From Thermoplasmata archaeon (GTDB lineage Archaea > Thermoplasmatota > Thermoplasmata > RBG-16-68-12 > JAGMCJ01): a stretch of 64,000 nucleotides of DNA. Both the position numbers and the translations under genes were made by a program. Shown piece after piece: positions 20,681-38,381 of this stretch. The DNA is taken from contig JAGLRN010000069.1 in the NCBI GenBank assembly GCA_023136265.1, positions 8,680 through 72,679 of the forward strand, in the 5' to 3' direction. The notes under the pieces were generated by a model, which saw only the letters and a list, made by a program, of their open reading frames with translations, was not told the origin of the DNA and made no database searches. Position 1 is the stretch's first letter. The number at the start of each line of letters is the position of its first letter.

Positions 20681-20816
20681 TCTTCCACCTGGAGTCTGAG
20701 TCTCACAATTCAAAGAGCTTATGTAAATCTTACGACTTCTTCATAGGGTGGAACGGTCCGATGGAATGGTTAGGAATGACGCACACGCGGGTTATCGACC
20801 TGGATCGCTCAGGAAG

Positions 20817-22221: not shown

Positions 22222-23013
22222 ATGGCCCAGAGGATAGGAATTGCCGGCAAAGGCGGCGTGGGCAAGACCACGCTAGCGGGAACCCTGGCGAGACTTCTAG
22301 CCAGGCGCGGAAAGAAGGTGCTGGCGGTCGACATCGACCCGTCTCCCAGCCTCGCGTCCGCGGTGGGGATACCGGAGGAGGAGAGAAAGAACCTGGTCCC
22401 GCTCTCCCGCATGCTGGACCTCATAGAGGAGAGGACGGGCGTGAGGCCAGGATCCTCCTACGGACAGATGTTCAAGCTCAACCCGAAGGTGGACGACCTC
22501 GTTGACACGTACGGCGCGATCGCGAAGGACGGCGTGAGACTCATCGTCCTAGGTACCATCGAACTGGGCGGGAGCGGATGCTTCTGCCCCGAGAACGCGT
22601 TGCTGAAGCGGCTCCTGAGGCACCTCGTTCTGGACAGGGACGAGGTCCTGATAATGGACATGGAGGCAGGGGTCGAGCATCTGGGCAGGGGCACGGCGGA
22701 GGGCGTAGACGTTCTCGTCATCGTAGTGGAGCCCGGGACGAAGTCCATCGAGACGGCGGGGAGGATAAGGAAGCTGGCGGAGGACGTGGGCATCGGCAGG
22801 GTTGTCGCGGTCCTGAACAAATCGCTCGGACAGGACGACTTCACCCGCTCGAAGCTTGCGGACATAGGCATAGAGCTGGTCGGGTCGATTCCATATAGGC
22901 CGTGCATAATCGAGGCGGACATGAAGGATATCCCACCAATCGACGACGAGGACTGCTCGGAGATCGTCGCGGCAATCGAGGACATCGGGGAGAAACTGGG
23001 ACTCCCGGACTGA
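22222..23013 (+). CDS. cooC: CO dehydrogenase maturation ATPase CooC (MinD/ParA-type, Ni insertion)
   Basis: Walker A GIAGKGGVGKTT, deviant P-loop architecture, and the CxC nickel-binding motif GSGCFCPENALL. Confidence 0.85.
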   Translation: MAQRIGIAGKGGVGKTTLAGTLARLLARRGKKVLAVDIDPSPSLASAVGIPEEERKNLVPLSRMLDLIEERTGVRPGSSYGQMFKLNPKVDDLVDTYGAIAKDGVRLIVLGTIELGGSGCFCPENALLKRLLRHLVLDRDEVLIMDMEAGVEHLGRGTAEGVDVLVIVVEPGTKSIETAGRIRKLAEDVGIGRVVAVLNKSLGQDDFTRSKLADIGIELVGSIPYRPCIIEADMKDIPPIDDEDCSEIVAAIEDIGEKLGLPD

Positions 23014-23063
23014 ACGATAGCTTTTTTCACAGGAAGGCATTCCGCTCTGCAAGGAGGTGCAAC

Positions 23064-23246
23064 ATGCCATTCATAAACGTCTACATGTGGCCAAGGGACA
23101 AGGAGAAGAAGCAGAAGCTCGCGCGAGCTATAACGGACGCCTTCGTGAGAATTGCGGGTATCCCACCAGACTCGATCTGGATCGTCTTCAACGACGTGGA
23201 GAAGTCCAATTGGGCCTCGGCGGGAGAGCTTGTCTCCGAGGATTAG
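23064..23246 (+). CDS. 4-oxalocrotonate tautomerase-family protein (60 aa, Pro1)
   Basis: MPFINVYMWPRDKEKKQKLARAITDAFVRIAGIPPDSIWIVFNDVEK..., the tautomerase-superfamily beta-alpha-beta fold signature with Pro after the initiator Met. A strong SD AAGGAGGTG lies 5 nt upstream. Confidence 0.65.
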   Translation: MPFINVYMWPRDKEKKQKLARAITDAFVRIAGIPPDSIWIVFNDVEKSNWASAGELVSED

Positions 23247-23354
23247 CATCCGTCGCAGCAAGTCGAACTTCGTCTTTTGCCGAAGATGATTCGCAAAAGC
23301 CAGCATCTGGCGGTTCGTGAAATGGGAAAAGAATCGGTGGCCAAGTAGGTCAGG

Positions 23355-23362
23355 TTTATAAA
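23355..23362 (+). promoter_or_regulatory. TATA box (TTTATAAA) about 55 nt upstream of the GTG start of the ferredoxin/cooS/acs genes
   Basis: A perfect archaeal TATA consensus in the 170-nt intergenic region, with GGGGGT SD-like sequence just before the start at 23417. Confidence 0.45.
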
Positions 23363-23416
23363 CAAGCGGTGTATACGACATAACCGGATTGTTGGCCATC
23401 TAATCGGGGGTAGTGA

Positions 23417-23845
23417 GTGAAGAAAGTCAAGTTTGACAAGGATATCTGCATGAGTTGCAGGGCTTGCGAGACCGCGTGCGGGGAGAGGCATTCCGACCAC
23501 TTGAATTGGCCGGACATCCTTCTTACGGAGCCGAGGCCGATCCCGCGTGTCAGGGTCTCTCTGAAGAAGGGTAACCCGTACCTCGCAAGGTGCCAGTTCT
23601 GCAAGAACCCGAAGTGCATGGAGGTCTGCGAGTTCGATGCCATCACGCAGGAAGAGGACGGGTTCGTGAGATTCGACGCGGAGAAGTGCACGGGATGTTG
23701 GGAGTGCTTGGAGGCATGCCCATTCGACTGCATAGAGAAGGACGAGGTCAACGAAGTCGCGATCAGGTGCGATCTCTGCGAGGAGTATGAGAACCTAGCC
23801 TGCGTCTCGGCCTGTCCGACTGATGCTTTGACGGTGAAGGAATAG
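23417..23845 (+). CDS. cooF: CooF-like ferredoxin with four [4Fe-4S] cluster motifs
   Basis: Four Cys clusters: CMSCRACETAC, CQFCKNPKCMEVC, CTGCWECLEACP, CDLCEEYENLACVSACP. The gene has a GTG start. Confidence 0.7.
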   Translation: MKKVKFDKDICMSCRACETACGERHSDHLNWPDILLTEPRPIPRVRVSLKKGNPYLARCQFCKNPKCMEVCEFDAITQEEDGFVRFDAEKCTGCWECLEACPFDCIEKDEVNEVAIRCDLCEEYENLACVSACPTDALTVKE

Positions 23846-23855
23846 GAGGAATAAC

Positions 23856-25871
23856 ATGGCTAAGGAATCTGAAATGAAACAGAAGTCAGTAGACCCAGCG
23901 ACACTGGAGATGTTGGAGAAGGTGCGCGATTCGGACGTGGATGCCACAACGATGTGGGACCGCTACGAGACGATGCAGCCACAGTGCCGCTTCGGAGAGC
24001 TGGGAATATGCTGCACGATATGTCTTCAGGGACCGTGCAGGATCAATCCGTTCGGCAAGGAACCCTCGCGAGGCATATGCGGGGCGACGGCCTACACGAT
24101 CGTCTCGAGGAACCTTCTCAGGAAGATAGCGGCAGGATGCTCTGCCCACTCCGACCACGGAAGACACATAGCCCATACCATGAAGGCTCTTGTCGACGGA
24201 AAAGCCGACGCCTACTCGATCAAGGACGAGGACAAGCTCAGAGTCGTCGCGCAGAGGGTTGGCATAGATGTAGATGGAAAGGACACGATGGAGCTGACGA
24301 AGGAGCTTCTCGGGGAGGCATTCGAGGACTTCTCAAGGGTAGAGCACGAACCACTCACCTGGTTGCGGACCACGCTCACTCCCAGGAGGCTGGAAATGTT
24401 GGACAGATATGGTGTCCTTCCAAGCAACATCGATGCCGCGGTCGTGGAAATCATGCATCGCACCCACATAGGTGTGGATGCAGATCCCGTTCCCCTCATC
24501 TTCAGCGGGATAAAATGCGCTCTCGCCGATCTGGCCGGTGAGCACATATCCACGGACCTGAGCGACATCCTGTTCGGAACTCCCATGCTCACGTTCACTG
24601 AGTCGAACCTCGGTGTGCTCAAGAAGGAGTCCGTCAACATCGCGATGAACGGTCACAACCCCGTACTGAGCGAGATCATGTGCGATATTGCAGAGGAGAT
24701 GAAGGGTGCCGCCGAGGAAGTTGGAGCGGACGGCATAAACATCGTAGGGATATGTTGCACCGGAAACGAACTGCTCATGCGGCGGGGGATTCCGCTTGCG
24801 ACCAACTTCGCCTCCCAGGAGCTGGCCATCATGACTGGTGTCCTTGACGCCATGGTCATCGACTATCAGTGTATATTGCCCTCGCTTGGGATGTGGGCGA
24901 ACTGCTTCCACACGAAGCTGATATCGACGTCCGACCTCTGCAGGCAGACAGGTGATATCCACATAGAGTTCAATCCCGCGAGCGCGAAGGAGGATGCACG
25001 GAGGATACTCCTTCTGGCCATCAACGCCTACAAGGACAGGAATGAGAATGCCATTCACATACCGGATGTGAAGGAGACTTCCTGTGTCGGATTCAGCGTG
25101 GAACAGATCATGGAGATTCTGTCCAAGGCCTCCGATGATCCTCTTCAATATCTTGCGGACAAGCTCAAAGAGGGAAAGATCCAAGGATTCGCAGCACTCG
25201 TTGGGTGCAACAATGTGAAGACCTGCCATGACCTCAATCATCTGACCCTCGCAAAGGAGTTCATCAAGAACGATATCCTTGTCATCTCGACAGGCTGTGC
25301 CGCGGGCGCCTACGTCAGAGCGGGACTCACGAACTCCAAGGCGACCAAGGACCTCGCGGGAGAAGGTCTGAAGGAAGTGCTCACCGAGCTTGGAGAGAAG
25401 TTTGGCTTCGACGGCCCGTTCCCGCCCGTCTGGCACATGGGGTCCTGCGTTGATAACTCACGAATACACGACTTCATGACGATGCTCGCGAACAAGATGG
25501 GAATTGACATCAAGGACCTTCCCGTCGTGGCGAGTGCGCCCGAGGACATGAGCGAGAAGGCGGTCGTGATAGGGACGTGGCTGGTGGCGACTGGCTGGCC
25601 GACCCACGTGGCGGTGCTACCGTTCATACATGGAAGTCCCCTCGTGGTGCAGATAGCCGAGAACACCGCCCGCGACGTTTACGGAGGCTACTTCGTCTTC
25701 GAGGAGGACCCGGACGAAGCTGCCAGGAAACTGGTCAACATAGTGAAGAACCGACGCTGGAGGTTGGGCATTGGTGAGGACAAGGAGACCATCTATTGGT
25801 CCGGCGAGACCAAGGAGGATGTTTTCGCGGAGAAACCTGAGGTCGCGGCTGACGGAGGTGAGGAGGAATGA
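23856..25871 (+). CDS. cooS: Ni-dependent carbon monoxide dehydrogenase catalytic subunit (CooS/AcsA)
   Basis: 671 aa with D/B-cluster cysteines CRFGELGICCTICLQGPCRI, C-cluster region HSDHGRH, and CCTGNELLMRRGIPLATNFASQELA...GCNNV. Confidence 0.9.
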   Translation: MAKESEMKQKSVDPATLEMLEKVRDSDVDATTMWDRYETMQPQCRFGELGICCTICLQGPCRINPFGKEPSRGICGATAYTIVSRNLLRKIAAGCSAHSDHGRHIAHTMKALVDGKADAYSIKDEDKLRVVAQRVGIDVDGKDTMELTKELLGEAFEDFSRVEHEPLTWLRTTLTPRRLEMLDRYGVLPSNIDAAVVEIMHRTHIGVDADPVPLIFSGIKCALADLAGEHISTDLSDILFGTPMLTFTESNLGVLKKESVNIAMNGHNPVLSEIMCDIAEEMKGAAEEVGADGINIVGICCTGNELLMRRGIPLATNFASQELAIMTGVLDAMVIDYQCILPSLGMWANCFHTKLISTSDLCRQTGDIHIEFNPASAKEDARRILLLAINAYKDRNENAIHIPDVKETSCVGFSVEQIMEILSKASDDPLQYLADKLKEGKIQGFAALVGCNNVKTCHDLNHLTLAKEFIKNDILVISTGCAAGAYVRAGLTNSKATKDLAGEGLKEVLTELGEKFGFDGPFPPVWHMGSCVDNSRIHDFMTMLANKMGIDIKDLPVVASAPEDMSEKAVVIGTWLVATGWPTHVAVLPFIHGSPLVVQIAENTARDVYGGYFVFEEDPDEAARKLVNIVKNRRWRLGIGEDKETIYWSGETKEDVFAEKPEVAADGGEEE

Positions 25872-28024
25872 CCAAGGTCACACAGACGGAACTGTTCAGC
25901 ATGGCGATTTCCGGAGCCATAACGGCAACCGGCTACGCTGACGTTCTCCTGAACCGCGCCCTGAGGAAATACGGTCCTAACCAGACGATCGAGTATCCAG
26001 ACACGGGATACGAGCTTCCCTGCTTCTACGGCTGGACGACGACGCCCGTGAAGACGCTCAGTGACCTTCCCGCCCTCCTCGGAGAGGTCAGGGGGAAGAT
26101 AAGGCACGAGCCTACTCTCGAGAACGCGCTAACGGCCGGTGAGGCCACCATGTGGTCCGCCGAGATCGTGGAGGCGCTTCGGTACATCAATAACGATAAG
26201 CCGTTCGAGAACGAGGCCCCGCCAGGAAAGCAGGAGTACTGCGGTTTCGTGGGCGATCCCGTCCTCAGGAATCTGGGCATAGCGTTCGTCGACGATACCA
26301 TCCCTGGTGCTGTAGTCTTCGTCGGAAAGGCGAAGGACCCGGAGGCGCTAGCGAGGATAGTGAGGGACTTCCAGAACAAGGGCATGCTGCTCATGGCGAC
26401 ATTCGACATAATCAGGCAGCTCGAGGACCAGGGAATCAAGATGGGGACTGACATAATGCTCTTTCCCCTCGGCGAGTTCACGCAGGCGATACACGGCCTG
26501 AGCTTCGCCATCAGGGCCGCCCTCGCTTTCGGCGGGATAAAGCGCGGAGACCGAGAGGGACTGCTGAAATACCTCAAGACGAGACCCAAGGTCGTGGTGT
26601 TCCAGTTCGGCCCGCTCGACCAGATTAAGGTCGCAGCCGAGTTCGCCGTGATGTTCAACGGCTCCCCGACGATCACGGACCAGGATGTAGAGGAGATCCC
26701 GGGCAAGTACATCGTGCAGAAGGACTACGACCAGATGGTTCAGACGGCCATCGAAGTAAGGGACATGCAGGTCAAGCTCGCAGCCGTCGACATCCCGGTC
26801 CCGTACGGACCCGCGTTCGAGGGCGAGACCGTCAGGAAACCGGACACATACGTGGAATGCGGTGGACCCTCCAAGACGCCCGTCTTCGAGCTGGTGAAGA
26901 TGCGAGAGGCGGACGAGGTCGAGGACGGCAAGATAACCATGATCGGGAAGGATGTCGACGAGCTCGAGGAAGGGAGCGGCAGCCCGCTCGGGATCGTAGT
27001 CGAGGTTTACGGAAAGGACATGCAGAAGGACTTCGAGTCTGTCCTGGAGAGGAGGATACATCAGTTCATCAACTTCACCGAGGGCGGGTGGCACACGGGC
27101 CAGAGGAACCTTCTTTGGATAAGGCTCAGCAAGGACGGTGTCGGCCAGGGACTGAGGTTCAAGCACTTCGGCGACGTGCTGCACGCCAAGTTCCACGACG
27201 ACTTTGGCGGACTGTTGAGCCGTGTTCAGGTGACCATAACAACGGACCCGGCGGAAATCGAGAAGCACCTTCCGGAGGCGATGGAATCCTACGATTACAG
27301 GGACGAACGCCTGAGAGGCATGACCGACGAGGCCGTGGAAACGTTCTACACCTGCACTCTGTGCCAGAGCTTTGCCCCGAACCACGTGTGTATCATCACT
27401 CCCGAGAGGCTCGGGCTCTGCGGCGCCATCAACTGGCTGGACGCCAAGGCCAGTAATCAGATTACGCCGACGGGTCCGAATCAACCCATTGACAAGAAGA
27501 CCACTATAGAGGAGGTCAAGGGCCAGTGGGAGGGCGTGAACGAGGCGGTAATCGAGCACTCTCACGGGAAGCTGGACAAGTTCAACATCTACACCATGAT
27601 GGAGGACCCGATGACATCGTGCGGCTGCTTCGAATGCATCGTCGGCATAGTTCCTGAGGCGAACGGCGTCGTCGTTGTAAACCGGGAGCACGGCGGGATG
27701 ACGCCCCTGGGGATGAAGTTCTCCACGCTCGCTGGAACTGTGGGCGGCGGACTGCAGATGCCTGGGTTCATAGGCGTCGGAAGGTACTACCTACTGTCGA
27801 ACAAGTTCATAAGCGCGGATGGCGGATTCCAGAGGATCGTCTGGATGCCGAAGGAGCTCAAGGACGCGATGTACGACAAACTTAAAGAGAGAGCAGAGGA
27901 ATTGGGCATTCCCGATTTCGTGGACAAGATCGCTGACGAGACGGTCGCAACGGAATCGGCGGAGCTGCTTGAGTTCCTCGCAGAGAAGGAGCATCCAGCT
28001 CTGAAGTTACCATCTATGCTGTAG
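25868..28024 (+). CDS. acsB: Acetyl-CoA synthase catalytic subunit, full-length bacterial type (AcsB)
   Basis: 718 aa with the N-terminal domain present (SGAITATGYADVLLNRALRKYGP), the A-cluster motif TSCGCFECIVGI, FYTCTLCQSFAPNHVCIITPERLGLCGAINWLD, and C-terminal ...HPALKLPSML. It is collinear with the Moorella-type AcsB rather than the about 470-aa archaeal CdhC. Confidence 0.9.
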   Translation: MTKVTQTELFSMAISGAITATGYADVLLNRALRKYGPNQTIEYPDTGYELPCFYGWTTTPVKTLSDLPALLGEVRGKIRHEPTLENALTAGEATMWSAEIVEALRYINNDKPFENEAPPGKQEYCGFVGDPVLRNLGIAFVDDTIPGAVVFVGKAKDPEALARIVRDFQNKGMLLMATFDIIRQLEDQGIKMGTDIMLFPLGEFTQAIHGLSFAIRAALAFGGIKRGDREGLLKYLKTRPKVVVFQFGPLDQIKVAAEFAVMFNGSPTITDQDVEEIPGKYIVQKDYDQMVQTAIEVRDMQVKLAAVDIPVPYGPAFEGETVRKPDTYVECGGPSKTPVFELVKMREADEVEDGKITMIGKDVDELEEGSGSPLGIVVEVYGKDMQKDFESVLERRIHQFINFTEGGWHTGQRNLLWIRLSKDGVGQGLRFKHFGDVLHAKFHDDFGGLLSRVQVTITTDPAEIEKHLPEAMESYDYRDERLRGMTDEAVETFYTCTLCQSFAPNHVCIITPERLGLCGAINWLDAKASNQITPTGPNQPIDKKTTIEEVKGQWEGVNEAVIEHSHGKLDKFNIYTMMEDPMTSCGCFECIVGIVPEANGVVVVNREHGGMTPLGMKFSTLAGTVGGGLQMPGFIGVGRYYLLSNKFISADGGFQRIVWMPKELKDAMYDKLKERAEELGIPDFVDKIADETVATESAELLEFLAEKEHPALKLPSML

Positions 28025-28036
28025 GGGCTTGGTACA

Positions 28037-28999
28037 ATGGCATTGGAGTTGCCCAAGGAGAAGTGGGTAGGGAAGATTGGACAAGTCGTCATCGGAGCCC
28101 TCGAGAGCGAGGGGGGAACGCGGACGAGCAAAGTTGCCCTGGGAGGGGCAACGAGCCTGCCTTTCCTCGGCTTTGAGGGCGAGTATCCGAACGAGCCGCC
28201 GATAGGGATGGAGATTTTCGACATCGTCCGAGAGGACTATCCAGAGGTTGCGAGGAAGCCCTTCGAGGATGTCATCGACGACCCCGGTAAGTGGGCCAAG
28301 AAGTGCGTCGAGGAATACGGCGCGGACATGATCTGCATCAGGATGATCGGCACGAACCCGGAGGAGGAGAACCGCTCGGTCGAGGACGCTGAACAGACGA
28401 TCAAGGAACTCAAGGAAGCGGTCGGAGTCCCGCTCCTGATCTACGGCTCCGGAGATGAGGAGAAGGACGCCAAGGTCCTCGAGATGGCCTCGAACGTTAT
28501 GGCCGGCGAGAGATGCCTTCTCGGTCTCGCGGAGGAGGCCGCGTACAAGTCGATATCCGTCGCGACCATGTCCAACGACCATGGAATCGTGGCGTTCAGC
28601 AATCTGGACATCAACCTGGCGAAGCAGATGAACATCCTGCTCACGGATTTCGGTGTCAAGCTCGGGAACATCGTCATGGACCCGCTTCAGGCGGGCCTAG
28701 GATACGGGCTCGAGTACTCGTACTCGGTCATCGAGAGGATCCGGCTCGCCGCGCTCATGGGAGATAAGATTCTTCAGGTTCCCATGATGTGCGGGACAGC
28801 GCGCGTCTGGAACGCGAGGGAGGCGTTCAAGGAGGACGCCGACACCGGGGATTCCACCTCCCGAGCGATATTCTGGGAGGCCACGACCGGTCTGTCCGCC
28901 CTACTGGCGGGCGCGGACGCGCTTCTCATGAGACATCCGGATGCCGTCAAGCACGTCAAGGAGTCCGTCAAGAACCTCTACGGAGGAGGCGAGCAGTAA
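28037..28999 (+). CDS. acsD: Corrinoid iron-sulfur protein small subunit (AcsD/CdhD-like TIM barrel, bacterial length)
   Basis: 320 aa, MALELPKEKWVGKIGQVVIGA...VALGGATSLPFLGFEG, typical of the CoFeSP delta subunit. Confidence 0.8.
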   Translation: MALELPKEKWVGKIGQVVIGALESEGGTRTSKVALGGATSLPFLGFEGEYPNEPPIGMEIFDIVREDYPEVARKPFEDVIDDPGKWAKKCVEEYGADMICIRMIGTNPEEENRSVEDAEQTIKELKEAVGVPLLIYGSGDEEKDAKVLEMASNVMAGERCLLGLAEEAAYKSISVATMSNDHGIVAFSNLDINLAKQMNILLTDFGVKLGNIVMDPLQAGLGYGLEYSYSVIERIRLAALMGDKILQVPMMCGTARVWNAREAFKEDADTGDSTSRAIFWEATTGLSALLAGADALLMRHPDAVKHVKESVKNLYGGGEQ

Positions 29000-30333
29000 T
29001 GGCGCTCACTGCCCTGGACATCTACAAGAAACTGCCGCAGACGAACTGCGGGAAATGTGGGTTCCCAACATGCCTGGCATTCGCGATGCAGCTGGCCAAC
29101 AAGAAGGCGAGCATCGACGCCTGTCCGGACGTCTCGGACGAGGCAAAGGAACTGCTGGAATCCTCAGCCGCACCGCCGATAAAACTGGTGAAGGTGGGCT
29201 CTGGGGACAGGGAGATTGAGATGGGAGACGAGGTCGTCATGCATAGGCACGAGAAGACGTTCTACCATCCTGTCGCGTACGCCCTGATGGTCGATGATGA
29301 CTCTCCAGACATAGAGTCCAAGGTCCAGGCGGCCGGGGAGATGAAGTTCGAGCGAGTGGGGCAGGAGATGCAACTCGACATGATCGCAATTCGCTCGAAA
29401 TCGGACGATCCAGCGAAGTTCTCCTCTGCCGTCTCCGCGGTGAAGGGAAAGACGTCAGTACCGCTCGCGCTCGTGTCGCAGAACCCAGCGGTCATAGAGG
29501 AAGGGCTGAAGGTCTGCGGCTCTGACAGACCGCTCATTCACGCCGCGACCAAAGACAACTTCGAGAAGATGGCGGAGCTCGCGAAGGCGAACAACTGCCC
29601 GCTGGCGGTCCTCGAGGACTCGGGACTGGAGGAGCTCGCTGAACTGAGCAAGAAGGTGAAGGAGGCGGGCGTGGAGGACATAGTCCTTGACCTCGGCAAG
29701 AAACCCCTGGGCAAGCTGTTCCAGGAGCTCACGCTGATCAGGCGGCTCGCCATCAAGAAGCTCTTCAGACCTCTCGGCTATCCGATCATCATGTTCGCCG
29801 AGGGCGAGGGGGCAAGCGAGGGTCTGGAAGCCGCGATCGGAACCCTGAAGTACGCTTCCATCGTCGTTATGAAGGAGGCGGACAGGGCCATCATGTATCC
29901 GCTGTTCACGCTCAGGCAGAACATCTACACAGACCCGCAGAAGCCCATACAGGTGAAGCCTGGCATATACGAACTCAACGGACCCGCCGAGGACTCACCG
30001 GTGATGATCACCACGAACTTCTCGCTCACTTACTTCACCGTCGCGGGGGACATCGAGACCAGCAAGGTCCCGAGCTATCTCCTCGTGGCCGATTCCGAGG
30101 GTCTGTCCGTGATGACGGCGTTCGCGGCGGACAAGTTCACCGCCGACACCGCTACGGAGCTGATAGAGAGCTGCGGGATTGCGGACAAGGTCAATCACAA
30201 GAAGATCATCATCCCCGGACAGGTGGCGAGGATGAGTGGAAAGCTCAACGAGAACTCCGGCTGGGAAGTGGTCGTGGGACCGAGGGATTCCTCCGGCCTT
30301 CCGAAGTACCTGAGAGAATACACTAGCGCCTAG
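28999..30333 (+). CDS. acsC: Corrinoid iron-sulfur protein large subunit (AcsC/CdhE) with an N-terminal [4Fe-4S] motif
   Basis: Starts MALTALDIYKKLPQTNCGKCGFPTCLAFAMQLA (Cx2Cx4C...C), with the ATG overlapping the acsD stop (TAATG), followed by TIM-barrel and B12-binding regions. The listed ORF has a spurious 70-aa N-terminal extension. Confidence 0.85.
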   Translation: MALTALDIYKKLPQTNCGKCGFPTCLAFAMQLANKKASIDACPDVSDEAKELLESSAAPPIKLVKVGSGDREIEMGDEVVMHRHEKTFYHPVAYALMVDDDSPDIESKVQAAGEMKFERVGQEMQLDMIAIRSKSDDPAKFSSAVSAVKGKTSVPLALVSQNPAVIEEGLKVCGSDRPLIHAATKDNFEKMAELAKANNCPLAVLEDSGLEELAELSKKVKEAGVEDIVLDLGKKPLGKLFQELTLIRRLAIKKLFRPLGYPIIMFAEGEGASEGLEAAIGTLKYASIVVMKEADRAIMYPLFTLRQNIYTDPQKPIQVKPGIYELNGPAEDSPVMITTNFSLTYFTVAGDIETSKVPSYLLVADSEGLSVMTAFAADKFTADTATELIESCGIADKVNHKKIIIPGQVARMSGKLNENSGWEVVVGPRDSSGLPKYLREYTSA

Positions 30334-31473
30334 CTACATCTGCGTCGGGTCCAGGTAGCTCGCTTCCTTCTTCCTGATCGGCTCGAGTGACTTGTCCACG
30401 GTCTTTTTCATCTGCAGACCGGAGACGTGCATCAGAGTGTCCCCGAGGTCGTCCTCGACGTTCATCGAGCACAGGCATGGATAGTGATGGTGCGCCAGCC
30501 CCGCCTTTTCCACGGCATCCCTGACCTCAGTTCCTGGGAGTTTATCGGCAACGAACCTCCCGCAGCCGCAGGGCGAGTCACGCACGACCTCCGTCCCCGT
30601 CACGGTGTTCTTCTCGACCTTCACGTCCAGTATGGGCCTTCCGAAGAATTCAGCGAACTTGTCGATGATAGGATTGCCCACCGCATCGAGGGTGCAAAAG
30701 GGCCTCGGGAACGCGGTTGCGATTCCGGTCTTTGAGAGTTCCCGCTTGATTTGCGTCTTCATCCCGAGTGGTAGCCACTGTGAGCTGTCCACCGGTGCGA
30801 TTAATGCCATCGCATCTGCGGCCTTCACTATGTCTACGATCAGTTGAGCGGCGCTCGAGTTCTCCTGCAGGGCGAGCACTAGGTCCGCTTTGGGCACGGA
30901 CTCTGGCAGGAACTCAGCGGGGTCGTCGATGACGAGTGGCAGGTCCACCGGGAGCATCAGTGTCTCCACCTTGAAGCCCTCGGGACCGTTGTCCTGAACA
31001 TTCTTGGCGATGCGCTCACCGTACTCACCCTGAACGAGCGCGAGAATCGTCATTTCTCCTTTGCCTACCCGCTCGAGTTCCTCGGCGGTCAGCTCCCGCT
31101 TCTGGATTTCCTCCTCCTTCTCCGCGGCCCGCTCGACGTGATAGGTCGGCCCTCTCTCCAGAGCCTCAAGAAGCCGCTTCTCGAAGGCCTCCATTTCGTC
31201 CCAATCTAGCTCTTCGCCTATGTCCAGAGCGATCGCCGAGTGCTTCGCCTCCCCCTGGAGCGTGTTCTTCTCGCCCGCGAGAACGGAGATCTCCGTCTCT
31301 CCAACGATCAATCGGAGGTTCGAGAAGACCTCCTTCTTCTTCTGAGCCTTGAGATATACCCTCTCAGGAGTGTAGTCGAAACGGCACGATCCTGTGCTGA
31401 GCGCCGCCGATCTGAGGGCCGCAACGACATCGCTTCCAGAGTATTCCTTGCCGAATGTGACTTCCTTTCTCAT
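30334..31473 (-). CDS. Hypothetical protein with a C-terminal Cys/His motif, embedded in the acs cluster
   Basis: 379 aa with no recognisable catalytic motif. C-terminal SPCGCGRFVADK...HHHYPCLCS. It is convergent with acsC with zero gap, and sits upstream of acsF/cooC2 on the same strand. Confidence 0.4.
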   Translation of the reverse strand: MRKEVTFGKEYSGSDVVAALRSAALSTGSCRFDYTPERVYLKAQKKKEVFSNLRLIVGETEISVLAGEKNTLQGEAKHSAIALDIGEELDWDEMEAFEKRLLEALERGPTYHVERAAEKEEEIQKRELTAEELERVGKGEMTILALVQGEYGERIAKNVQDNGPEGFKVETLMLPVDLPLVIDDPAEFLPESVPKADLVLALQENSSAAQLIVDIVKAADAMALIAPVDSSQWLPLGMKTQIKRELSKTGIATAFPRPFCTLDAVGNPIIDKFAEFFGRPILDVKVEKNTVTGTEVVRDSPCGCGRFVADKLPGTEVRDAVEKAGLAHHHYPCLCSMNVEDDLGDTLMHVSGLQMKKTVDKSLEPIRKKEASYLDPTQM

Positions 31474-31506: not shown

Positions 31507-32253
31507 CTAGATGTTCAGCTTGGCGAGGATCTCCTTGGCCCGCGCGTAGGCGACGCTGTCCGTGGGGAGGTCGATGAGCGGATCCCCGGTCAGGGAGAGC
31601 TCTTTTATGTTCTGGTCCTCGGGGAACACTTCCCTGCAGTTAAAACCAGCCTCCTCGATGACCGGGCTCAGGAGCTCCGGGATCTCGGCGGTGCGGCTGA
31701 TGACCAGGCATCTATCCTTCACCTTCAGGTCTAGGCTACCGCTCAGTTCCCTGATCCTTCCAGCGGTCACCACGCCGTGTTTGGTCGGGTCCGACAGTAT
31801 GAACATCATGTCGACGTTCCTTGTGGTCCTCCTGCTGAGGTGCTCCATCCCGGCCTCGTTGTCTATGACCACGTAATCGTAGTTCGCCGAGAGCTGGTCC
31901 AGATACGTCCGAAGGATGTTGTTGATGTAGCAGTAGCAACCCGGACCCTCCTGTCTGCCCATCGCGACTAGGTCGAACTTGTCGCCCTCGACCATGGCCA
32001 TACGGAGGTTATAGTCCACGTAGTCCTGCTTGGACATAGCGGGGGATGAATCACCAACGTTCTTGAGCAGGTCCTCTCTGAGATCGCCGATCGTCTGGTT
32101 CACTTCGACCCCGAGCATCACGTCGAGCGTCGAGTTTGGGTCTGCGTCGACCGCCAGAACCACGGACTTCTCGCTGAGCGCCTTTATCAGAAGCGTCGCG
32201 AACGTGGACTTCCCCACGCCGCCCTTGCCCGAAACGGCGATGGTCTTTCCCAT
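31507..32253 (-). CDS. acsF: Second CooC-family Ni-insertion ATPase (AcsF-like)
   Basis: MGKTIAVSGKGGVGKST Walker A and the CxC motif GPGCYCYINN. A GGAGGA SD lies 6 nt upstream of the internal ATG; the listed ORF begins 9 codons earlier. Confidence 0.8.
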   Translation of the reverse strand: MGKTIAVSGKGGVGKSTFATLLIKALSEKSVVLAVDADPNSTLDVMLGVEVNQTIGDLREDLLKNVGDSSPAMSKQDYVDYNLRMAMVEGDKFDLVAMGRQEGPGCYCYINNILRTYLDQLSANYDYVVIDNEAGMEHLSRRTTRNVDMMFILSDPTKHGVVTAGRIRELSGSLDLKVKDRCLVISRTAEIPELLSPVIEEAGFNCREVFPEDQNIKELSLTGDPLIDLPTDSVAYARAKEILAKLNI

Positions 32254-32254
32254 C

Positions 32255-33256
32255 TCAGTCCTCCAGACCGTACTTCTCACGCATGTGGCTGGACAGTTCC
32301 CTCGTCATCCTCAGGGCCGCCTCCGCCTGTTCCTCGCTCAGGCCTGATAGGCCGCACATGGGCGTCACAAGGGACTGCCTGCGAATCCTTTCCTCGTCCA
32401 CACCTTTCCCTGCCAGCAGTCCAATATTACTTTCAAGCTTCCCTATAAGACTTTGCAGATTCTCAGCTGCAAAGGCGTCGGGTGTCGATGGGACCACGCC
32501 CCACGCGATAAGGCCTCCCCGGTCCAGGAAGGCTGACACATCCTCGGGATAGAGCGAGAGCGTGTGACCATAGTTGTACGCGTCGAAGGAGAGCATGCTG
32601 GCAGGAGACCGCAGGATGAGCGGCCATTCCGTGTTCCCGCAGCAGTGGAACCCGCTCAGCCCGCCAAGGTCGTTGACCACGTCCTCGAACAATGTGAGGA
32701 CCTCGTCCTTGCTGATGTTCAGGAATGCCGAGCCATACATGTTGAGATACGGCTCGTCGAAGACGACCAGTGTGTTCTCGTGAAGACCGGAGAGGCGGTT
32801 TGCCATCCAACGCGCGGTCATGTTCACCGTCTTCGTGACGATCTCCTTGTACGTGTCGTCGTACAGAAGCGATCTCTTGTCCTCGTACGTCAGGTTGAGA
32901 CCCAGGCTGATGGGTCCCGTGACCTGCCCTCGAACAATCTTGGCGGGGGTTCCCTTCACCGCCCTCTCGAACTCGAAGAATGCGGTGGCGAACTCGGGTG
33001 ACAGCGAGAAGTATTCCAAATCCTCCTCAATGACCTTCTCGTAGAAGGACTCGATCTCAGATGCCTCCCCCGGTTCTACGAATATCCTGTCATCCTCCAT
33101 CCGGACGCCAGGGATGCTCTGCGAGTACTGGGCGTACATGTTCTCCTTGAATCCCCGGCGGGGAAGCTGTGGCCAGGTCGGGATCTCGGGCGTGTACTTC
33201 AGAACGAGCTCCACGGCCTTTTTGACGTCGGTGTGCGGGAGGCTTCCGACGGTCAT
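32255..33256 (-). CDS. Core MetE-like (cobalamin-independent methionine synthase C-terminal domain / URO-D fold) Zn-dependent methyltransferase
   Basis: LVVFDEPYLN (MetE IQIDEPAL-like), His-x-Cys FHCCGN, and a distal Cys in TPMCGLSGL (MetE PDCGL-like). 333 aa, without the N-terminal folate-binding barrel of full MetE. Confidence 0.6.
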   Translation of the reverse strand: MTVGSLPHTDVKKAVELVLKYTPEIPTWPQLPRRGFKENMYAQYSQSIPGVRMEDDRIFVEPGEASEIESFYEKVIEEDLEYFSLSPEFATAFFEFERAVKGTPAKIVRGQVTGPISLGLNLTYEDKRSLLYDDTYKEIVTKTVNMTARWMANRLSGLHENTLVVFDEPYLNMYGSAFLNISKDEVLTLFEDVVNDLGGLSGFHCCGNTEWPLILRSPASMLSFDAYNYGHTLSLYPEDVSAFLDRGGLIAWGVVPSTPDAFAAENLQSLIGKLESNIGLLAGKGVDEERIRRQSLVTPMCGLSGLSEEQAEAALRMTRELSSHMREKYGLED

Positions 33257-33279: not shown

Positions 33280-35184
33280 TCAGATGACCAGCTCCCTGGC
33301 GCTCGGGAACTTCTCCAGGTTGGTATGAGGCAAGAACATGGCAGAGGTGAACTCATTGAAGAATGACGGTGTGACGCTAAGCTCGATGTAGGTCATCTTC
33401 TTGGCGATGTCTGTCGCCTCCTGCTTGCTCTTCTTCGACAGGATCGTCAAACGGGCGCCCGCCAAAGACCCGTTCCCGATGAACCTGAACTTGTTAGGGT
33501 CCACGTCAGGAAGCAGGCCGAGCCATATGCTCTTCCTCGTGTCCAGATAGTTCCCGAAGCCACCAGCGATGAATATCTGCTCGACATCGTCGAAGGAGTA
33601 GTTCATCGTCTTCAGTAGCACGGTCGCGGCCGCGTAGACCGCCGCCTTCGTTCGGATGATGTTCCTGATGTCGACCTCCGTGATGACCATGTCCTTGTAT
33701 ATCCTGGTCTCGTCCGCCCAGACGACGACGAACTCCTTGCCTTCGGGGCCGTCACGGACCCTCGGGATCTTGAGCGGTCTGATCCTCCCTGAACGGTCGA
33801 TGACACCGTGCATGAACATCTCCGCGAGCAGGTCGATGAGACCGGTGCCGCAGATGCCTTTCGGCTTCACATCCCCTATCGTCTTGTACTTGACCTCAAG
33901 GTCCGTGGTGAGAGCCACTTTCTCTATCGCACCGACCATCGCCCGGATGCCGTAATCGACCTCGCCGCCCTCGAACGCCGGGCCCGCCGAGCACGAACAG
34001 GAGACCATCCAGTCCTTGTTCCCGAGAACGACCTCGCCGTTCGTCCCGACGTCTATCAGCATGGAGAGCTTGTCCGTCTTGTGCAGCGCTGACGCCAGCA
34101 CATCCGCCGTGATGTCCCCGCCGACGTAGCTGCTGCGACACGGCAGGATGTAGACGTAGCCCTCCGGGTTGATCTTGATGCCAGTCTCCCTGGCCTTGAT
34201 GAGCGGGAAGAAGTTCGCCGACGGGATGTACGGCTCCCGCCTGATGTGCGCGGGGTTCAGTCCGAGAAGCAGATGAGTCATCACCGTGTTGCCAGCCGCG
34301 GCGGCGTAGCAGATCTCGTTCCGACGCACTCCCGCATCGTCCATCATCTCCTTGAGGAGGTAGTTAATCGTCTCCACAATCAGCATTCTGAGAACCTTCA
34401 GCCCGCCCTTCTCCTCCTCGGCGTGAAGAATCCTGGTGAGGACGTCCTCGCCGTGGATTACCTGCTTATTATAGGCTGCCTTCTTCGCGACTATCTCCCC
34501 GCTACTCAGGTTCACGAGCTCGGCGACGACAGTCGTGGTTCCCACGTCCACCGCCAGACTGAAGTTCCTCGCGGACGTATCTCCGCCCTGCAGATGCACG
34601 AGCTCGTGGCACTCGCCGTCCTCCACGACCGTGGCCGTCACGTCCCACTCGCTCTTCCTGAAGAGGTTGCTCATCCTCCTCATCACGGGCAGGGGGCCCA
34701 TGATGTCCTCGATTCCGTGGTCGCTCAGCGCTCGCTTCAGGCGGTCCAGATCGCTCAGGTTGTCCGTCAGCGTCGGTTCGCTCAGCTCAAAATAGAATTT
34801 CATGATGGGCGGGTCCAGCTTCTCCGCCTCCACGACGTCGGCCTTCATCAGTATCTGAAGCATCCCGACGCGGCTCTCTTCAGGGACGAGGACTTCGACA
34901 TCGCCCTCCGCCCTGGTCATGCATGCGAGGTGATAACCCTTCTTGATCTCGCTAGGTTCGAGAAGCTCCGTCTTCTCGGCGGTAACGTCTCCCGCCTGAA
35001 CGATGACCTTGCACTTGCCGCACTTGCCTCGACCGCCACAGATGGAATCGACGTAGATGTCGGCCTCGATCGCTGCGTCGAGGAGGTCCGTGCCCTTGTC
35101 GACCTCTATCGTCTTGTCGTCTGGTAGGAACCTGACCTGCACCTTCTTAGCCATGTCTCCCAGCATTCCGAAGTCTTGCGCCAT
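33280..35184 (-). CDS. acsV: Reductive activator of the corrinoid Fe-S protein (RACo/AcsV): an N-terminal [2Fe-2S] ferredoxin fused to an ASKHA-fold ATPase (DUF4445)
   Basis: N-terminal plant-type ferredoxin VDSICGGRGKCGKCKV...HLACMT followed by about 500 aa of ATPase-like domain. 634 aa. Confidence 0.75.
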   Translation of the reverse strand: MAQDFGMLGDMAKKVQVRFLPDDKTIEVDKGTDLLDAAIEADIYVDSICGGRGKCGKCKVIVQAGDVTAEKTELLEPSEIKKGYHLACMTRAEGDVEVLVPEESRVGMLQILMKADVVEAEKLDPPIMKFYFELSEPTLTDNLSDLDRLKRALSDHGIEDIMGPLPVMRRMSNLFRKSEWDVTATVVEDGECHELVHLQGGDTSARNFSLAVDVGTTTVVAELVNLSSGEIVAKKAAYNKQVIHGEDVLTRILHAEEEKGGLKVLRMLIVETINYLLKEMMDDAGVRRNEICYAAAAGNTVMTHLLLGLNPAHIRREPYIPSANFFPLIKARETGIKINPEGYVYILPCRSSYVGGDITADVLASALHKTDKLSMLIDVGTNGEVVLGNKDWMVSCSCSAGPAFEGGEVDYGIRAMVGAIEKVALTTDLEVKYKTIGDVKPKGICGTGLIDLLAEMFMHGVIDRSGRIRPLKIPRVRDGPEGKEFVVVWADETRIYKDMVITEVDIRNIIRTKAAVYAAATVLLKTMNYSFDDVEQIFIAGGFGNYLDTRKSIWLGLLPDVDPNKFRFIGNGSLAGARLTILSKKSKQEATDIAKKMTYIELSVTPSFFNEFTSAMFLPHTNLEKFPSARELVI

Positions 35185-35231: not shown

Positions 35232-36059
35232 CTAGGTGGATACTGCCTTGTCAATCGCCTTCGAGAGATCGTACCCGCCAGGGACTGGTTGGCCATGGGC
35301 AACGACCGTTCCGTCCTCGATCCGGACCTCCCCCTCAGCGAATACTCTCAGTGTATGAACGATGAGCGGCAGCTCGCGTATGAAGCCCAGCCTGCGTATC
35401 TCCGCGAACAGTGGATTGCCCTCTCCGTCTTTCTTGGCGATGTCTCCCACCGTCTCGCTCTCCAATCTCGCGTCGAAGTCCCGCCAAAGCGGTCCCAAAT
35501 CCCCGCCAACGATCGGGAAAACACAGTACGTTATCACGGGTCCGCGGTCCAACTCCTCCGTGACGAGGTGCAGCATCACCCCTGTCCTGTCCACTCTTTT
35601 TTCGAGAAGCTCCCATATCACCTCCTGCCACGTTCCTTTGGGCCCGTCCGGAGCGGCTGGATGGAGGTTGATCATATCGTAGACCTTGCACATCTCGTCG
35701 CCGACAATGAGCATATAGCCCGCCAGAACGCCGAGGTCCATCTCGTGCCCCTCGAGGCGCTTCACTATCTCCCTGTCGTACTCCCTCCTCCACTGCTTCA
35801 GTATCCCCTCGTCCTTCCTGCCCTCGGCCCTCATCTCCGGCTTGAACTTGCTCGAGGAGAACTGGATGAGCGTGTATCCGAAGCTCCTCACAAGATCGAA
35901 GAAAAGGTCGCTCTGCTCGAACTCGCCGTCCTCGCGGTTGCTGAACACGAAGGATATCTTCCCTGGTATCGTCCCGTCCTCAATCCCGTCGTGCGCTTCG
36001 ATGAGTAGCTCCCGCGCGGCGGGGTCCCTTCCCGTGGAGAACCATCCAATCCTGAACAT
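35232..36059 (-). CDS. PurN-like formyltransferase-family protein
   Basis: INLHPAAPDGPKGTWQEVIWELLEKRVDRTGVMLHLVTEELDRGPVITYCVFPI resembles the formyl_trans_N HxSLLP...G...H.v.e.lD.GpII motif. Confidence 0.55.
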   Translation of the reverse strand: MFRIGWFSTGRDPAARELLIEAHDGIEDGTIPGKISFVFSNREDGEFEQSDLFFDLVRSFGYTLIQFSSSKFKPEMRAEGRKDEGILKQWRREYDREIVKRLEGHEMDLGVLAGYMLIVGDEMCKVYDMINLHPAAPDGPKGTWQEVIWELLEKRVDRTGVMLHLVTEELDRGPVITYCVFPIVGGDLGPLWRDFDARLESETVGDIAKKDGEGNPLFAEIRRLGFIRELPLIVHTLRVFAEGEVRIEDGTVVAHGQPVPGGYDLSKAIDKAVST

Positions 36060-36110: not shown

Positions 36111-36737
36111 CTAGGAGTGGTGCTTCCCGGATTCCTGCGGGATCCCCTTCTTCAGCTTCTCATATCTCTCTCGATAGAGTTTCAAGCAGGACTCGCAGCA
36201 GAGGTAATGAGTTCTCCCGTCCATCTTGAGCGTGACAGGATCGTCCGTGATAGGTTTCCTGCACAGGTAGCAGGGAACGACTATCGATATCCCTTCCGAG
36301 ATGACCGCATCGGGCTCCTTCTTCGTCGTCCGAACGACGCGGTCGATGGAGTATCTGTCGATCTCCTCCAGCCCCTCAAGCCAGGCAAGGAAGCTGTTGA
36401 TCGTAGCTTCGCTTTCGGATACAAGCCTGCACATGAGCTTGGAGCCGCTGAGGACGAGGACCTCACGGATGTTCTCCTTCTCCGAAAGGCTCTTGGCCAG
36501 CTTCTCCAGGTGCTTCGGCTGACATTCTACCGAGACAATCGAGGTGGTCTCCCGGATCGCTTCCGTATCGATCAATGCCGAGTATCCTCTGATGACTCCC
36601 CGTTCCTCCAAAGCCTTGATCCTCGAACTCACGGTCGGAGTGCTGACACCGATGGTCTTGCCAAGCTCCCTGAAAGAGATCCGGGCATCCTCCTGAAGCT
36701 GCTTCAGTATTCTCGCGTCGGTCTCGTCGAGTTCCAT
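36111..36737 (-). CDS. Lrp/AsnC-family transcriptional regulator with a C-terminal TRASH metal-binding domain (CopR-like)
   Basis: N-terminal HTH MELDETDARILKQLQEDARISFRELGKTIGVSTPTVSSRIKALEE, a RAM-like middle region, and C-terminal CYLCRKPI...THYLCCESC (TRASH Cx2C...Cx3C). Confidence 0.75.
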   Translation of the reverse strand: MELDETDARILKQLQEDARISFRELGKTIGVSTPTVSSRIKALEERGVIRGYSALIDTEAIRETTSIVSVECQPKHLEKLAKSLSEKENIREVLVLSGSKLMCRLVSESEATINSFLAWLEGLEEIDRYSIDRVVRTTKKEPDAVISEGISIVVPCYLCRKPITDDPVTLKMDGRTHYLCCESCLKLYRERYEKLKKGIPQESGKHHS

Positions 36738-36870
36738 GGTTTGGTACTAGGCAGCCTCACCTATTATACCTTTGTAAAGCGGGCGGTTGCATCTCCTTAC
36801 AAACGTGAGAGGGAAGTAGGATAGATTGGCTTTCCCTAGTACCCTCCGTACTTCCTGAGAGTGAATCTCA

Positions 36871-37824
36871 ATGATAGCTCAGTTTCTACTCGTACTGAGA
36901 GAAGGTTTGGAAGCGGCCCTAATCGTCGGCATAGTCTTCGCCTATCTGAGGAGGATTGGCAAGGGCCCGCTCACAAGATTCCTGACTCTGGGTGCCGCAT
37001 CGGCAATCGGCGTCAGCATACTTGCGGCCCTGCTCATCTTCATGCTGGTGGGACAACTCTCGGACCCCCAGATGGAGATTTTCGAGGGTGTGGCGTCCCT
37101 CCTCGCGGTGGGCGTTCTGACCATCATGATCTTTTGGATGTCCAAGAAGGGACCTGAGCTGAAGAGGGAAATCGAAAGCAAACTGGACAGCAGGGTATCG
37201 AGAGGTGAGGTCTTCGCCGTGTTTGGGATATCCTTCGTCGCCGTCGTGCGGGAAGGTCTTGAGACGGTGCTCTTCCTCTTCCCGCTGGCTCTGTCTGATA
37301 GCGCGGCAACCATTCTAGGCCTAGTTGCCGGACTCGCTGTCGTCCTTCTCCTCCTCGTCCTCCTGATGAAGGGGATCGAGAGGCTGGACATCAAGAAGTT
37401 CTTCACAGTCACAGGAGTCCTCCTGATCGTCTTCGCCGCAGGCCTCACTGCGACCGCGGTCCACGAGTTCAACGAGGCTGGGGTCGTTCCGCCTGTCGTG
37501 AATGAGGTTTGGAACATCAACCCCCCGCGAAACCCAGATGGAAGCTATCCTGTGCTCCACGAGAAGGGAGCAATAGGCGGGATCATGAAGTCCCTCTTGG
37601 GATACAACGGAAACCCGTCCTTGACCGAGGTCACAGCCTATGTTTCGTATTGGATAGTGATCTCTGGATACCTGTTCCTCACAAACGCGGAGACTGTGAA
37701 GAGCATGCTTCGCGCGATGGGGGCCAAAGTCAGATCGCCATTGAGAAAGGGTCGGATGGCAGCGGTTCCTAGTGAGGACATACGGCTGGATGAAGCGACC
37801 GCCCGAGGGAGTGTCGAGAGGTGA
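36871..37824 (+). CDS. efeU: FTR1/EfeU-family high-affinity iron (or metal) permease
   Basis: Two REGLE motifs (LREGLEAALIVG and VREGLETVLFLF) in a polytopic membrane protein of 317 aa. Confidence 0.75.
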   Translation: MIAQFLLVLREGLEAALIVGIVFAYLRRIGKGPLTRFLTLGAASAIGVSILAALLIFMLVGQLSDPQMEIFEGVASLLAVGVLTIMIFWMSKKGPELKREIESKLDSRVSRGEVFAVFGISFVAVVREGLETVLFLFPLALSDSAATILGLVAGLAVVLLLLVLLMKGIERLDIKKFFTVTGVLLIVFAAGLTATAVHEFNEAGVVPPVVNEVWNINPPRNPDGSYPVLHEKGAIGGIMKSLLGYNGNPSLTEVTAYVSYWIVISGYLFLTNAETVKSMLRAMGAKVRSPLRKGRMAAVPSEDIRLDEATARGSVER

Positions 37825-38381
37825 GTGCTTTGACGGAATCGAGTAATAGAAACAGCCTGATCCTTGCCGGGCTCCTGGCGGGAGCCATCATCCTGATAGT
37901 TGGCATCACGTTGACCCTGTGGGACGCTGGGGGCATGACCGAAGACATGTGGAGCCATCACGGCATGGGACTGTCATTTCCCATGGGCATGTCTTTCGTG
38001 GTCTTAGGTGGAGTTGTCCTTGTCATCCTTTTCGTCCTCGCCATTCCTCAGCCCCGCGGTGTCGAGAGGCCCGTGGCAGCCTACATCCCGATGACTCCCC
38101 TTCAGAATAATGAGGATTGGACACCAGAAATGCGGAATCTGGCACTGAGGCTCCTCCAAGGGGATGAGCGCAGAATGCTAAGGCAGATTTTCGACGCGGG
38201 TGGTCAGATACTTCAGAAGGACCTGGTGTATCGAGCAGGCTTCTCGAAGGCCAAGGTGACGAGGCTGCTCGACAAGTTGGAGAGGAGAGGTCTAATCATC
38301 AGGGAGAGACACGGTTCAACGAACCTCGTCCGAGTGCTAGAGGACCTAGGAGGTAAGAACGATGGAATTTCAGAAAAGTGA
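37821..38381 (+). CDS. Membrane-tethered winged-helix transcriptional regulator: two N-terminal TM helices with a Met/His-rich extracytoplasmic loop, and a C-terminal wHTH
   Basis: TM1 LILAGLLAGAIILIVGITLTLW, loop DAGGMTEDMWSHHGMGLSFPMGMSF, TM2 VVLGGVVLVILFVLAI, then LRQIFDAGGQILQKDLVYRAGFSKAKVTRLLDKLERRGLIIRER (MarR/TrmB-like wHTH). The start overlaps the efeU stop (ATGA-type). Confidence 0.55.
   Translation: MSALTESSNRNSLILAGLLAGAIILIVGITLTLWDAGGMTEDMWSHHGMGLSFPMGMSFVVLGGVVLVILFVLAIPQPRGVERPVAAYIPMTPLQNNEDWTPEMRNLALRLLQGDERRMLRQIFDAGGQILQKDLVYRAGFSKAKVTRLLDKLERRGLIIRERHGSTNLVRVLEDLGGKNDGISEK

Follow-up and report, generated by a model that had tools for sequence, protein, structure and literature searches.

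Genes at the locus

The window, by which is meant the whole stretch of 64,000 nucleotides (64 kb) analysed here, contains a CODH/ACS cluster made of two facing gene strings (Table 1). A plus-strand string, cooC1-fdx-acsA-acsB-acsD-acsC (22222-30333), is met by a converging minus-strand string of five genes, PurN-like, RACo, mesB, cooC2 and DUF166, which are separated by spacers of 1 to 47 nt and presumably form an operon. The gene of interest is mesB. In an earlier note, made from the letters alone, it had been described as a core MetE-like zinc methyltransferase gene lying between those of the corrinoid reductive activator and of the Ni-insertion ATPase; both neighbours are indeed found here, RACo/AcsV upstream and a CooC/AcsF-type ATPase downstream.

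Table 1. Genes of the CODH/ACS region of the window (L001 is one of the loci compared in the text).
Gene	Position	Strand	Product	Size and basis
cooC1	22222..23013	+	First CooC-type ATPase	PF01656 and others
fdx	23417..23845	+	Polyferredoxin-like 4Fe-4S protein, upstream of acsA	Cys-rich ORF; syntenic gene of L001 has Fer4 families
acsA	23856..25871	+	Ni-CODH	PF03063 Prismane, 535.6 bits
acsB	25868..28024	+	Bacterial-type acetyl-CoA synthase	PF18537, PF03598, PF19436
acsD	28037..28999	+	Small CoFeSP subunit	PF03599
acsC	28999..30333	+	Large CoFeSP subunit, presumed methyl donor protein	444 aa; PF04060, PF03599; gene model as in L001
DUF166	30334..31473	-	DUF166 protein, CODH/ACS accessory factor	379 aa, with N-terminal extension of about 140 aa; PF02593, 174.5 bits
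cooC2	31507..32253	-	cooC2/acsF-type Ni-insertion P-loop ATPase	248 aa; Pfam CbiA/AAA_31/ArsA_ATPase
mesB	32255..33256	-	MesB-type core methionine synthase (predicted methyl-corrinoid:homocysteine S-methyltransferase)	333 aa; ORF, homologues, residues, AF2/Foldseek
RACo	33280..35184	-	RACo/AcsV, ATP-dependent reductive activator of CoFeSP	PF14574, PF17651, PF17650, Fer2
PurN-like	35232..36059	-	Divergent PurN/PurU-like formyltransferase	275 aa; PF00551; first gene of the co-directional string

The mesB-cooC2 junction reads TGA-g-ATG. The cooC2 start codon (ATG at 32253) thus follows the mesB stop codon by a single nucleotide and cooC2 is apparently translationally coupled to mesB; the 248-aa form of cooC2 is the one chosen by gene callers. 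The RACo product scores 674 bits against NF040756, under the curated cutoff of 800, and has all three RACo Pfam domains together with a 2Fe-2S domain. The formyltransferase-like protein encoded at the head of the string gives a weak, sub-cutoff match to the PurN model TIGR00639 (63.7 bits). Among the loci compared below, a PurN-like gene is also the neighbour of RACo in L001, L002 and L006, and the position of the DUF166 gene is kept in L001, L002, L005, L006 and L060. In M. maripaludis, a CooC2-DUF166 operon is needed for autotrophic growth and is cofit with CODH/ACS (bioRxiv 10.1101/2024.03.05.583561). In that archaeon as in the window, CooC2 is followed by DUF166 on the strand opposite the CODH/ACS operon. 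However, the operon of the window also contains RACo, mesB and the formyltransferase-like gene, and the ACS of the window is bacterial-type.

Fold, ligand residues and family assignment

Homologue searches show that the 333-aa minus-strand ORF is a real gene. Full-length homologues, 71-97% identical, are found in metagenome-assembled genomes of Thermoplasmata, the identical protein is encoded on 10 independent metagenome contigs, and the family as a whole counts more than 1100 members. The protein is 45% identical to that of Methanomassiliicoccus sp. P0035 and 40-46% identical to Methanomassiliicoccales homologues in general; identity with Dehalococcoidia members is only 38-46%. Alignment of 37 diverse homologues shows that S5, D167-E168-P169, H204-C205-C206, D225 and T298-P299-x-C301 are invariant (37/37), and that at least 90% of the sequences keep G4. 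The DEP, H-x-C and distal Cys motifs pointed out previously are among these invariant positions.

Domain models say little about the protein. It matches no Pfam family at E ≤ 0.1 and no NCBIfam family at E ≤ 1, and the search for Meth_synt_2 or URO-D that had been suggested as a check gives neither. The signature of canonical MetE (Meth_synt_2 or TIGR01371, together with an N-terminal Meth_synt_1) is absent from it, and the AcsE models (Pterin_bind, NF005719 and NF040758) do not match. Within the set of 37 family members, marginal Pfam matches are obtained with Meth_synt_2 in four cases and with URO-D in three, and, with a best E-value of 0.014 for both, they fail to tell one from the other. 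The NCBIfam model PRK00957, "methionine synthase", weakly matches one Dehalococcoidales member (E = 1e-7). A single-sequence search of the PDB returned phage tail-terminator proteins at E = 0.003, which were dismissed as chance matches.

Only the fold, profile searches and the motifs reveal the kinship with MetE. An AF2 model computed from the family alignment (pLDDT 92.6, pTM 0.91) consists of a single (beta-alpha)8 barrel. The second, folate-binding barrel is absent from it, which bears out the earlier statement that the folate-binding N-terminal barrel is missing. When this model is compared with the PDB using Foldseek, ranks 1 to 14 all go to methionine synthases of the MetE or MesD type (E = 4e-9 to 1e-6, TM 0.53-0.60); the structural matches share 13-16% sequence identity with MesB and include the 341-aa protein 3RPD. 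An MT2-like fold is not the top match: the MtaA-like methyltransferase of M. mazei, 4AY7, comes at rank 15 (E = 3.8e-6, TM 0.55). A profile built from the family alignment finds 3RPD, annotated as "B12-independent methionine synthase", as its sole match in the PDB (E = 0.0099), with the DEP and HxC motifs aligned.

The family to which the protein belongs can be recognized from the spacing of its ligand residues. Deobald et al. (2020; PMC7005905) showed that cbdbA481 of D. mccartyi, a 343-aa "core-MetE", uses methylcob(III)alamin, and not methyl-THF, to methylate homocysteine. Its zinc ligands are His215, Cys217, Asp236 and Cys312, and SAM synthetase and SAH hydrolase are encoded in the same operon. 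The MesB family was later defined and named by Price et al. (2021; PLoS Genet, PMC7857596), with zinc ligands at positions 214, 216, 235 and 311 and homocysteine ligands Ser15 and Asp177 in DET0516. In the window protein, spacing predicts H204, C206, D225 and C301 as zinc ligands, and S5 and D167 as homocysteine ligands. Counted from the His (n = 204), these residues stand at n-199 (S), n-37 (D), n+2 (C), n+21 (D) and n+97 (C), offsets identical to those published for MesB of DET0516/cbdbA481 and unlike those of MesC (-193, -38, +110). The same spacing recurs across the family, many members of which, including a Thermoplasmata protein 77% identical to that of the window, carry the residues at the exact DET0516 numbering. 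The Asp as fourth zinc ligand is a hallmark of MesB and, as judged from the sequence, is found in the window protein. The variant sites (FSHG, YCDQ, YREQ) of the non-enzymatic Chloroflexales subfamily are not.

The published threshold for MesB, at least 173 bits with phmmer against DET0516, is reached here by proxy only, using Dehalococcoidia members: the window ORF scores 281-335 bits against 22 homologues from Dehalococcoidia/Dehalococcoidales, which share the operon context described for cbdbA481. In addition, the Methanomassiliicoccus protein to which it is 45% identical comes from a genus listed as having MesB only (Price et al., 2021). In agreement with the expected link to CoFeSP, acsD and acsC lie within 2 kb of mesB. 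Membership is thus judged from the spacing of the residues, the operon context and the proxy scores. The description of the protein as a core-MetE-like zinc methyltransferase was therefore right, and can be made more precise: it is a member of the MesB family, whose prototype is the core-MetE of D. mccartyi.

Comparison with related enzymes places the protein further. It resembles D. mccartyi MesB (cbdbA481, CAI82680; DET0516, UniProt Q3Z939) in its size (about 340 aa), its single MetE-like barrel, its H-x-C...D...C zinc site with Asp as fourth ligand, and the identical spacing of the Ser and Asp that bind homocysteine; the window protein, the host of which is an uncultured Thermoplasmata archaeon, has an N-terminus 9-10 residues shorter. 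Canonical MetE (TIGR01371; Meth_synt_1 and Meth_synt_2) has in common with it the catalytic barrel, the zinc-thiolate chemistry and the DEP motif, but has an N-terminal folate barrel, a Glu zinc ligand in place of the Asp of MesB and methyl-THF as donor, where MesB has a corrinoid. MesA (the core MetE of methanogens, PRK00957), MesC and MesD (3RPD) are also core methionine synthases without a folate domain; nevertheless, MesA, MesC and MesD show less than 30% identity with MesB, as is the case between families (Price et al., 2021). Moreover, MesD requires MesX and O2; the locus of the window has no such partner.

Gene context across the family

GTDB species genomes supplied 80 of the loci at which the surroundings of mesB were compared; these are the 80 best of at least 592, and neither D. 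mccartyi nor the lineage of the window is represented among them. Four more loci came from other assemblies. The context counts are over 83 loci. Flanking regions were scored by tblastn with the proteins of the window and of loci L003 and L004 as queries, and a neighbour-joining tree was built from 83 MesB sequences and that of the window.

Two contexts emerge. At all 17 archaeal loci (Thermoplasmata, Methanomassiliicoccales, Methanomethylophilaceae), mesB lies beside CooC2, RACo or AcsB/C/D, and the same ACS context is found at seven bacterial loci, from Deltaproteobacteria, Syntrophaceae, Clostridia, one Anaerolineales and unclassified bacteria. In this set of 24 loci, cooC2 directly follows mesB in 17, and RACo is located within 3.5 kb upstream in 15. 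The RACo-mesB-cooC2-DUF166 string of the window is also present in L001, L002 and L006 (46% identity), as well as in the Deltaproteobacteria locus L060. At 47 of the 83 loci, all from Chloroflexota, mesB stands instead beside the genes of MtnA, MTA phosphorylase, SAH hydrolase or SAM synthetase. The family thus has links with the methionine/SAM cycle as well as with CoFeSP, and this dual context is what a CoFeSP-dependent methionine synthase predicts.

These observations fit with what is known of the family. AcsC or AcsD is encoded in all of the 123 MesB-containing proteomes (123/123), mesB-acsCD operons are known in methanogens, and CoFeSP was predicted to be the methyl donor (Price et al., 2021). 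The mesB gene of the window is clustered with CoFeSP genes as in these methanogen operons (Fig 3B and S1 Table of Price et al., 2021), and has cooC2 directly downstream as in Methanomassiliicoccales. Its genome also resembles that of D. mccartyi, where AcsC and AcsD are encoded and methyl-CoFeSP is the predicted donor. However, in D. mccartyi, mesB belongs to a SAM-cycle operon, whereas that of the window belongs to the acs accessory operon RACo-mesB-cooC2-DUF166; in addition, the CODH AcsA is encoded in the cluster of the window and not in D. mccartyi.

Predicted function of MesB and alternatives

Taken together, the data indicate that the ORF very likely encodes a MesB-type core methionine synthase that takes its methyl group from a methyl-Co(III) corrinoid, most likely that of CoFeSP. 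By analogy with the D. mccartyi enzyme, the sole member measured, the protein of the window would have methylcobalamin:homocysteine activity; as for the physiological donor, we infer from clustering and co-occurrence that it is CoFeSP. The following mechanism can be proposed. A Zn2+ ion held by His204, Cys206, Asp225 and Cys301 would activate the thiol of homocysteine, itself positioned by Ser5 and Asp167. The resulting thiolate would attack the methyl group of the methyl-Co(III) corrinoid, yielding methionine. The corrinoid would most likely be that of methylated CoFeSP, whose subunits AcsC and AcsD are products of the convergent acs operon; ACS would load the protein with a methyl group drawn from either acetyl-CoA or the methyl branch. 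RACo would hold CoFeSP in its active Co(I) state, and CooC2 and DUF166 may mature or support ACS. Co-transcription of mesB with the RACo, cooC2 and DUF166 accessory genes would couple the expression of methionine synthesis to that of the enzyme by which its methyl donor is loaded. Methionine synthesis from methyl-CoFeSP, one of the two roles envisaged in the earlier note, is thus supported: it is the hypothesis already published for MesB enzymes, and is in line with the gene contexts seen here.

The second role envisaged was that the mesB product replaces AcsE as the methyl-folate partner of CoFeSP. The gene is set among CoFeSP-related genes, and AcsE is, as had been noted, missing from the 64-kb window: the best tblastn match of an AcsE-like query (E = 0.014) is at chance level and falls inside acsC, and Pfam scans of about 45 window ORFs revealed no Pterin_bind or MtrH domain. 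Nor was AcsE found within 10 kb in the syntenic loci L001, L002 and L006 of the Thermoplasmata clade. However, the mesB product has neither a pterin-binding domain nor the N-terminal folate barrel of MetE, the characterised MesB is inactive on methyl-THF, and the homocysteine-binding Ser and Asp are invariant, as is the thiol-activating zinc site. Moreover, five loci, L003, L032, L063, L064 and L077 (Methanomassiliicoccaceae and one Anaerolineales locus), have an AcsE-type gene at a distance of 6-9 kb from mesB. In L003, this gene reaches 285 bits with NF005719 (cutoff 259) and adjoins the MTHFR gene. Because an AcsE-type gene coexists with mesB at these five loci, MesB is no generic replacement for AcsE; its place in the SAM-cycle operons of Chloroflexota also argues against such a role, which we consider very improbable. 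It should be noted that the Methanomassiliicoccaceae loci, with AcsE nearby, and MTHFR as well in L003, have no AcsA within 10 kb, whereas the clade of the window has AcsA, DUF166 and the PurN-like gene and no AcsE nearby.

Two other readings leave the methionine cycle aside. In one of them, the protein would be an MT2-type (MtaA/MtbA-like) methylcobamide:thiol methyltransferase acting on coenzyme M or on another thiol than homocysteine. Its HxCG-type zinc motif resembles that of MT2 enzymes, many relatives are found in methanogenic Methanomassiliicoccales, and both the structural match to 4AY7 and the marginal URO-D matches of three family members point in this direction. Yet 4AY7 is outranked by MetE and MesD structures, the window protein itself has no URO-D match, and the Asp of the DEP motif, which in MetE binds the alpha-amino group of homocysteine, is invariant. 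In addition, the family (38-47% identity) also occurs in SAM-cycle operons of non-methanogenic Dehalococcoidia, and homocysteine methyltransferase activity was measured for the D. mccartyi member, so that an MT2-type enzyme seems highly unlikely. In the other reading, the protein would be in this lineage an accessory or maturation factor of ACS/CoFeSP rather than a biosynthetic methionine synthase, involved for instance in metal handling with the adjacent CooC2 or in the reset of mis-methylated CoFeSP. The tightest linkage kept in the ACS context is that of mesB with the following cooC2, in both domains and here with a 1-nt spacer, and the rest of the operon was taken as containing only accessory genes (RACo, CooC2 and DUF166). 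Nevertheless, co-expression with the accessory genes of the methyl donor is enough to explain this linkage. All catalytic and homocysteine-binding residues are kept, unlike in the non-enzymatic Chloroflexales subfamily (Price et al., 2021). Furthermore, MesB is the only methionine synthase in many prototrophs (Price et al., 2021). Little credence can therefore be given to a purely accessory function.

A MesB-type methionine synthase at this locus reveals no new kind of enzyme or pathway. The family, its missing folate domain, the corrinoid donor, the link with the Wood-Ljungdahl CoFeSP and the archaeal clustering with acsCD are already published. The novelty that the earlier note implied is therefore unsupported, since Price et al. 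(2021) already reported that mesB clusters with acsCD and proposed CoFeSP as the donor. What is added here is a family member in a clade of uncultured Thermoplasmata, the order RACo-mesB-cooC2-DUF166 of an accessory operon, and a clean split of the family between ACS context and SAM-cycle context. Genomic context, in archaea and in several bacterial phyla, thereby supports the idea that a Wood-Ljungdahl corrinoid protein hands its methyl group straight to a methionine synthase, bypassing folate. There is also a consequence for annotation. No Pfam or NCBIfam model recognises MesB, and archaeal copies are therefore labelled "hypothetical"; because of this blind spot, genomes that encode MesB could be miscalled methionine auxotrophs.

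Finally, the CODH/ACS locus is flanked in the window by about 30 kb on each side in which AcsE was looked for and not found, as it was within 10 kb in the syntenic loci. In this Thermoplasmata clade, CoFeSP would then have no methyl-transfer partner other than MesB among the proteins encoded with the complex. One may go further and imagine a Thermoplasmata lineage devoid of AcsE and MetF, in which a complete CODH/ACS would mainly or partly supply the methyl groups of methionine and SAM by cleaving acetyl-CoA. Such a situation, which we regard as rather unlikely, would amount to a Dehalococcoides-like cleavage of acetyl-CoA, except that CO would be oxidised by AcsA. In that case, the RACo-mesB-cooC2-DUF166 string, common to the window and to a Deltaproteobacteria genome, would represent a transferable "CoFeSP-to-methionine" module.

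ACS loci lacking a nearby CODH gene and the annotation of MesB

Genes for bacterial-type AcsB, AcsC and AcsD are found together with mesB and cooC2 at ten loci of MesB homologues from Methanomassiliicoccales and Methanomethylophilaceae (L003, L010, L028, L032, L040, L045, L056, L063, L064 and L076). At all ten, AcsA, the CODH, is absent within 10 kb. This layout, ACS without CODH, resembles that of Dehalococcoides mccartyi, the source of the characterised MesB. An AcsE-type gene is present in four of the ten (L003, L032, L063 and L064), and in L003, from Methanomassiliicoccus, it is adjoined by a gene for MTHFR. The MesB family, as represented by an alignment of 37 homologues, is covered by no Pfam or NCBIfam model, and none of the 240 MesB homologues listed carries a precomputed Pfam domain. 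The archaeal copies are named "hypothetical protein" by NCBI.

Genes within and beside the acs cluster

Features of the window, with coordinates and strands
Feature	Position	Strand	Remarks
SHMT/GCV_T fusion ORF	14750-18409	-	1219 aa; serine hydroxymethyltransferase and two GCV_T domains
UbiE/MenG-type SAM-dependent methyltransferase	20748-21509	+	0.7 kb upstream of cooC1
Small ORF	23064-23246	+	60 aa; downstream of cooC1, ahead of the ferredoxin gene that precedes acsA
DUF166 protein	30334-31473	-	N-terminal extension of ~140 aa
Formyl_trans_N protein	35232-36059	-	275 aa; weak PurN/PurU match
FTR1 iron permease, flanking regulators	36111-38381		adjoins the acs accessory operon
Very large putative surface proteins (several)	7759-12564	+	
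	43731-59793		

The N-terminal extension of the DUF166 protein matches no family. The stop codons of its gene and of the convergent acsC adjoin directly (30333/30334). In M. maripaludis, autotrophy was shown to need DUF166 together with CooC2 (bioRxiv 10.1101/2024.03.05.583561). The Formyl_trans_N protein scores 63.7 bits with PurN and 26.6 bits with PurU, both far under the cutoffs, and its gene also lies next to RACo at the three syntenic Thermoplasmata-clade loci (L001, L002 and L006). A role as a divergent folate formyltransferase or hydrolase tied to the acs locus is possible.

On the other side of the cluster, the UbiE/MenG-type methyltransferase has a weaker relative directly upstream of mesB in Methanomassiliicoccus (L003, 9176-9949); both proteins give sub-threshold matches to the model "corrinoid protein-associated methyltransferase CpaM". 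At the position that corresponds to the small ORF, L001 encodes a 60-aa protein annotated with the Tautomerase family.

The fusion protein

The serine hydroxymethyltransferase domain is assigned to PF00464 (380 bits). One GCV_T domain is divergent (89.7 bits), and the other is a canonical aminomethyltransferase domain (252.7 bits). The best 120 matches listed are 1172-1282 aa long and 46-97% identical, and each spans 94-100% of the query. Their sources are Thermoplasmata, Methanomassiliicoccales, Anaerolineae/Chloroflexi, Aerophobetes and [Eubacterium] cellulosolvens; GcvT or SHMT is the only annotation given. A keyword search of the literature returned nothing obviously on this fusion. Several homologues appear, from contigs of equal length, to lie on the same contigs as MesB homologues.

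FTR1 region and surface proteins

The regulators on either side of FTR1, an AsnC-HTH protein with a TRASH domain and a DUF7343/MarR protein, are of archaeal type. The arrangement, which L001 and L002 share in synteny, supports an archaeal host. The putative surface proteins include a papain-like protease (1601 aa) and a PNGase-A-like protein (790 aa); FG-GAP, Big_13, PKD, fn3 and SBP_bac_5 domains occur in those of 1611, 1396 and 1557 aa.
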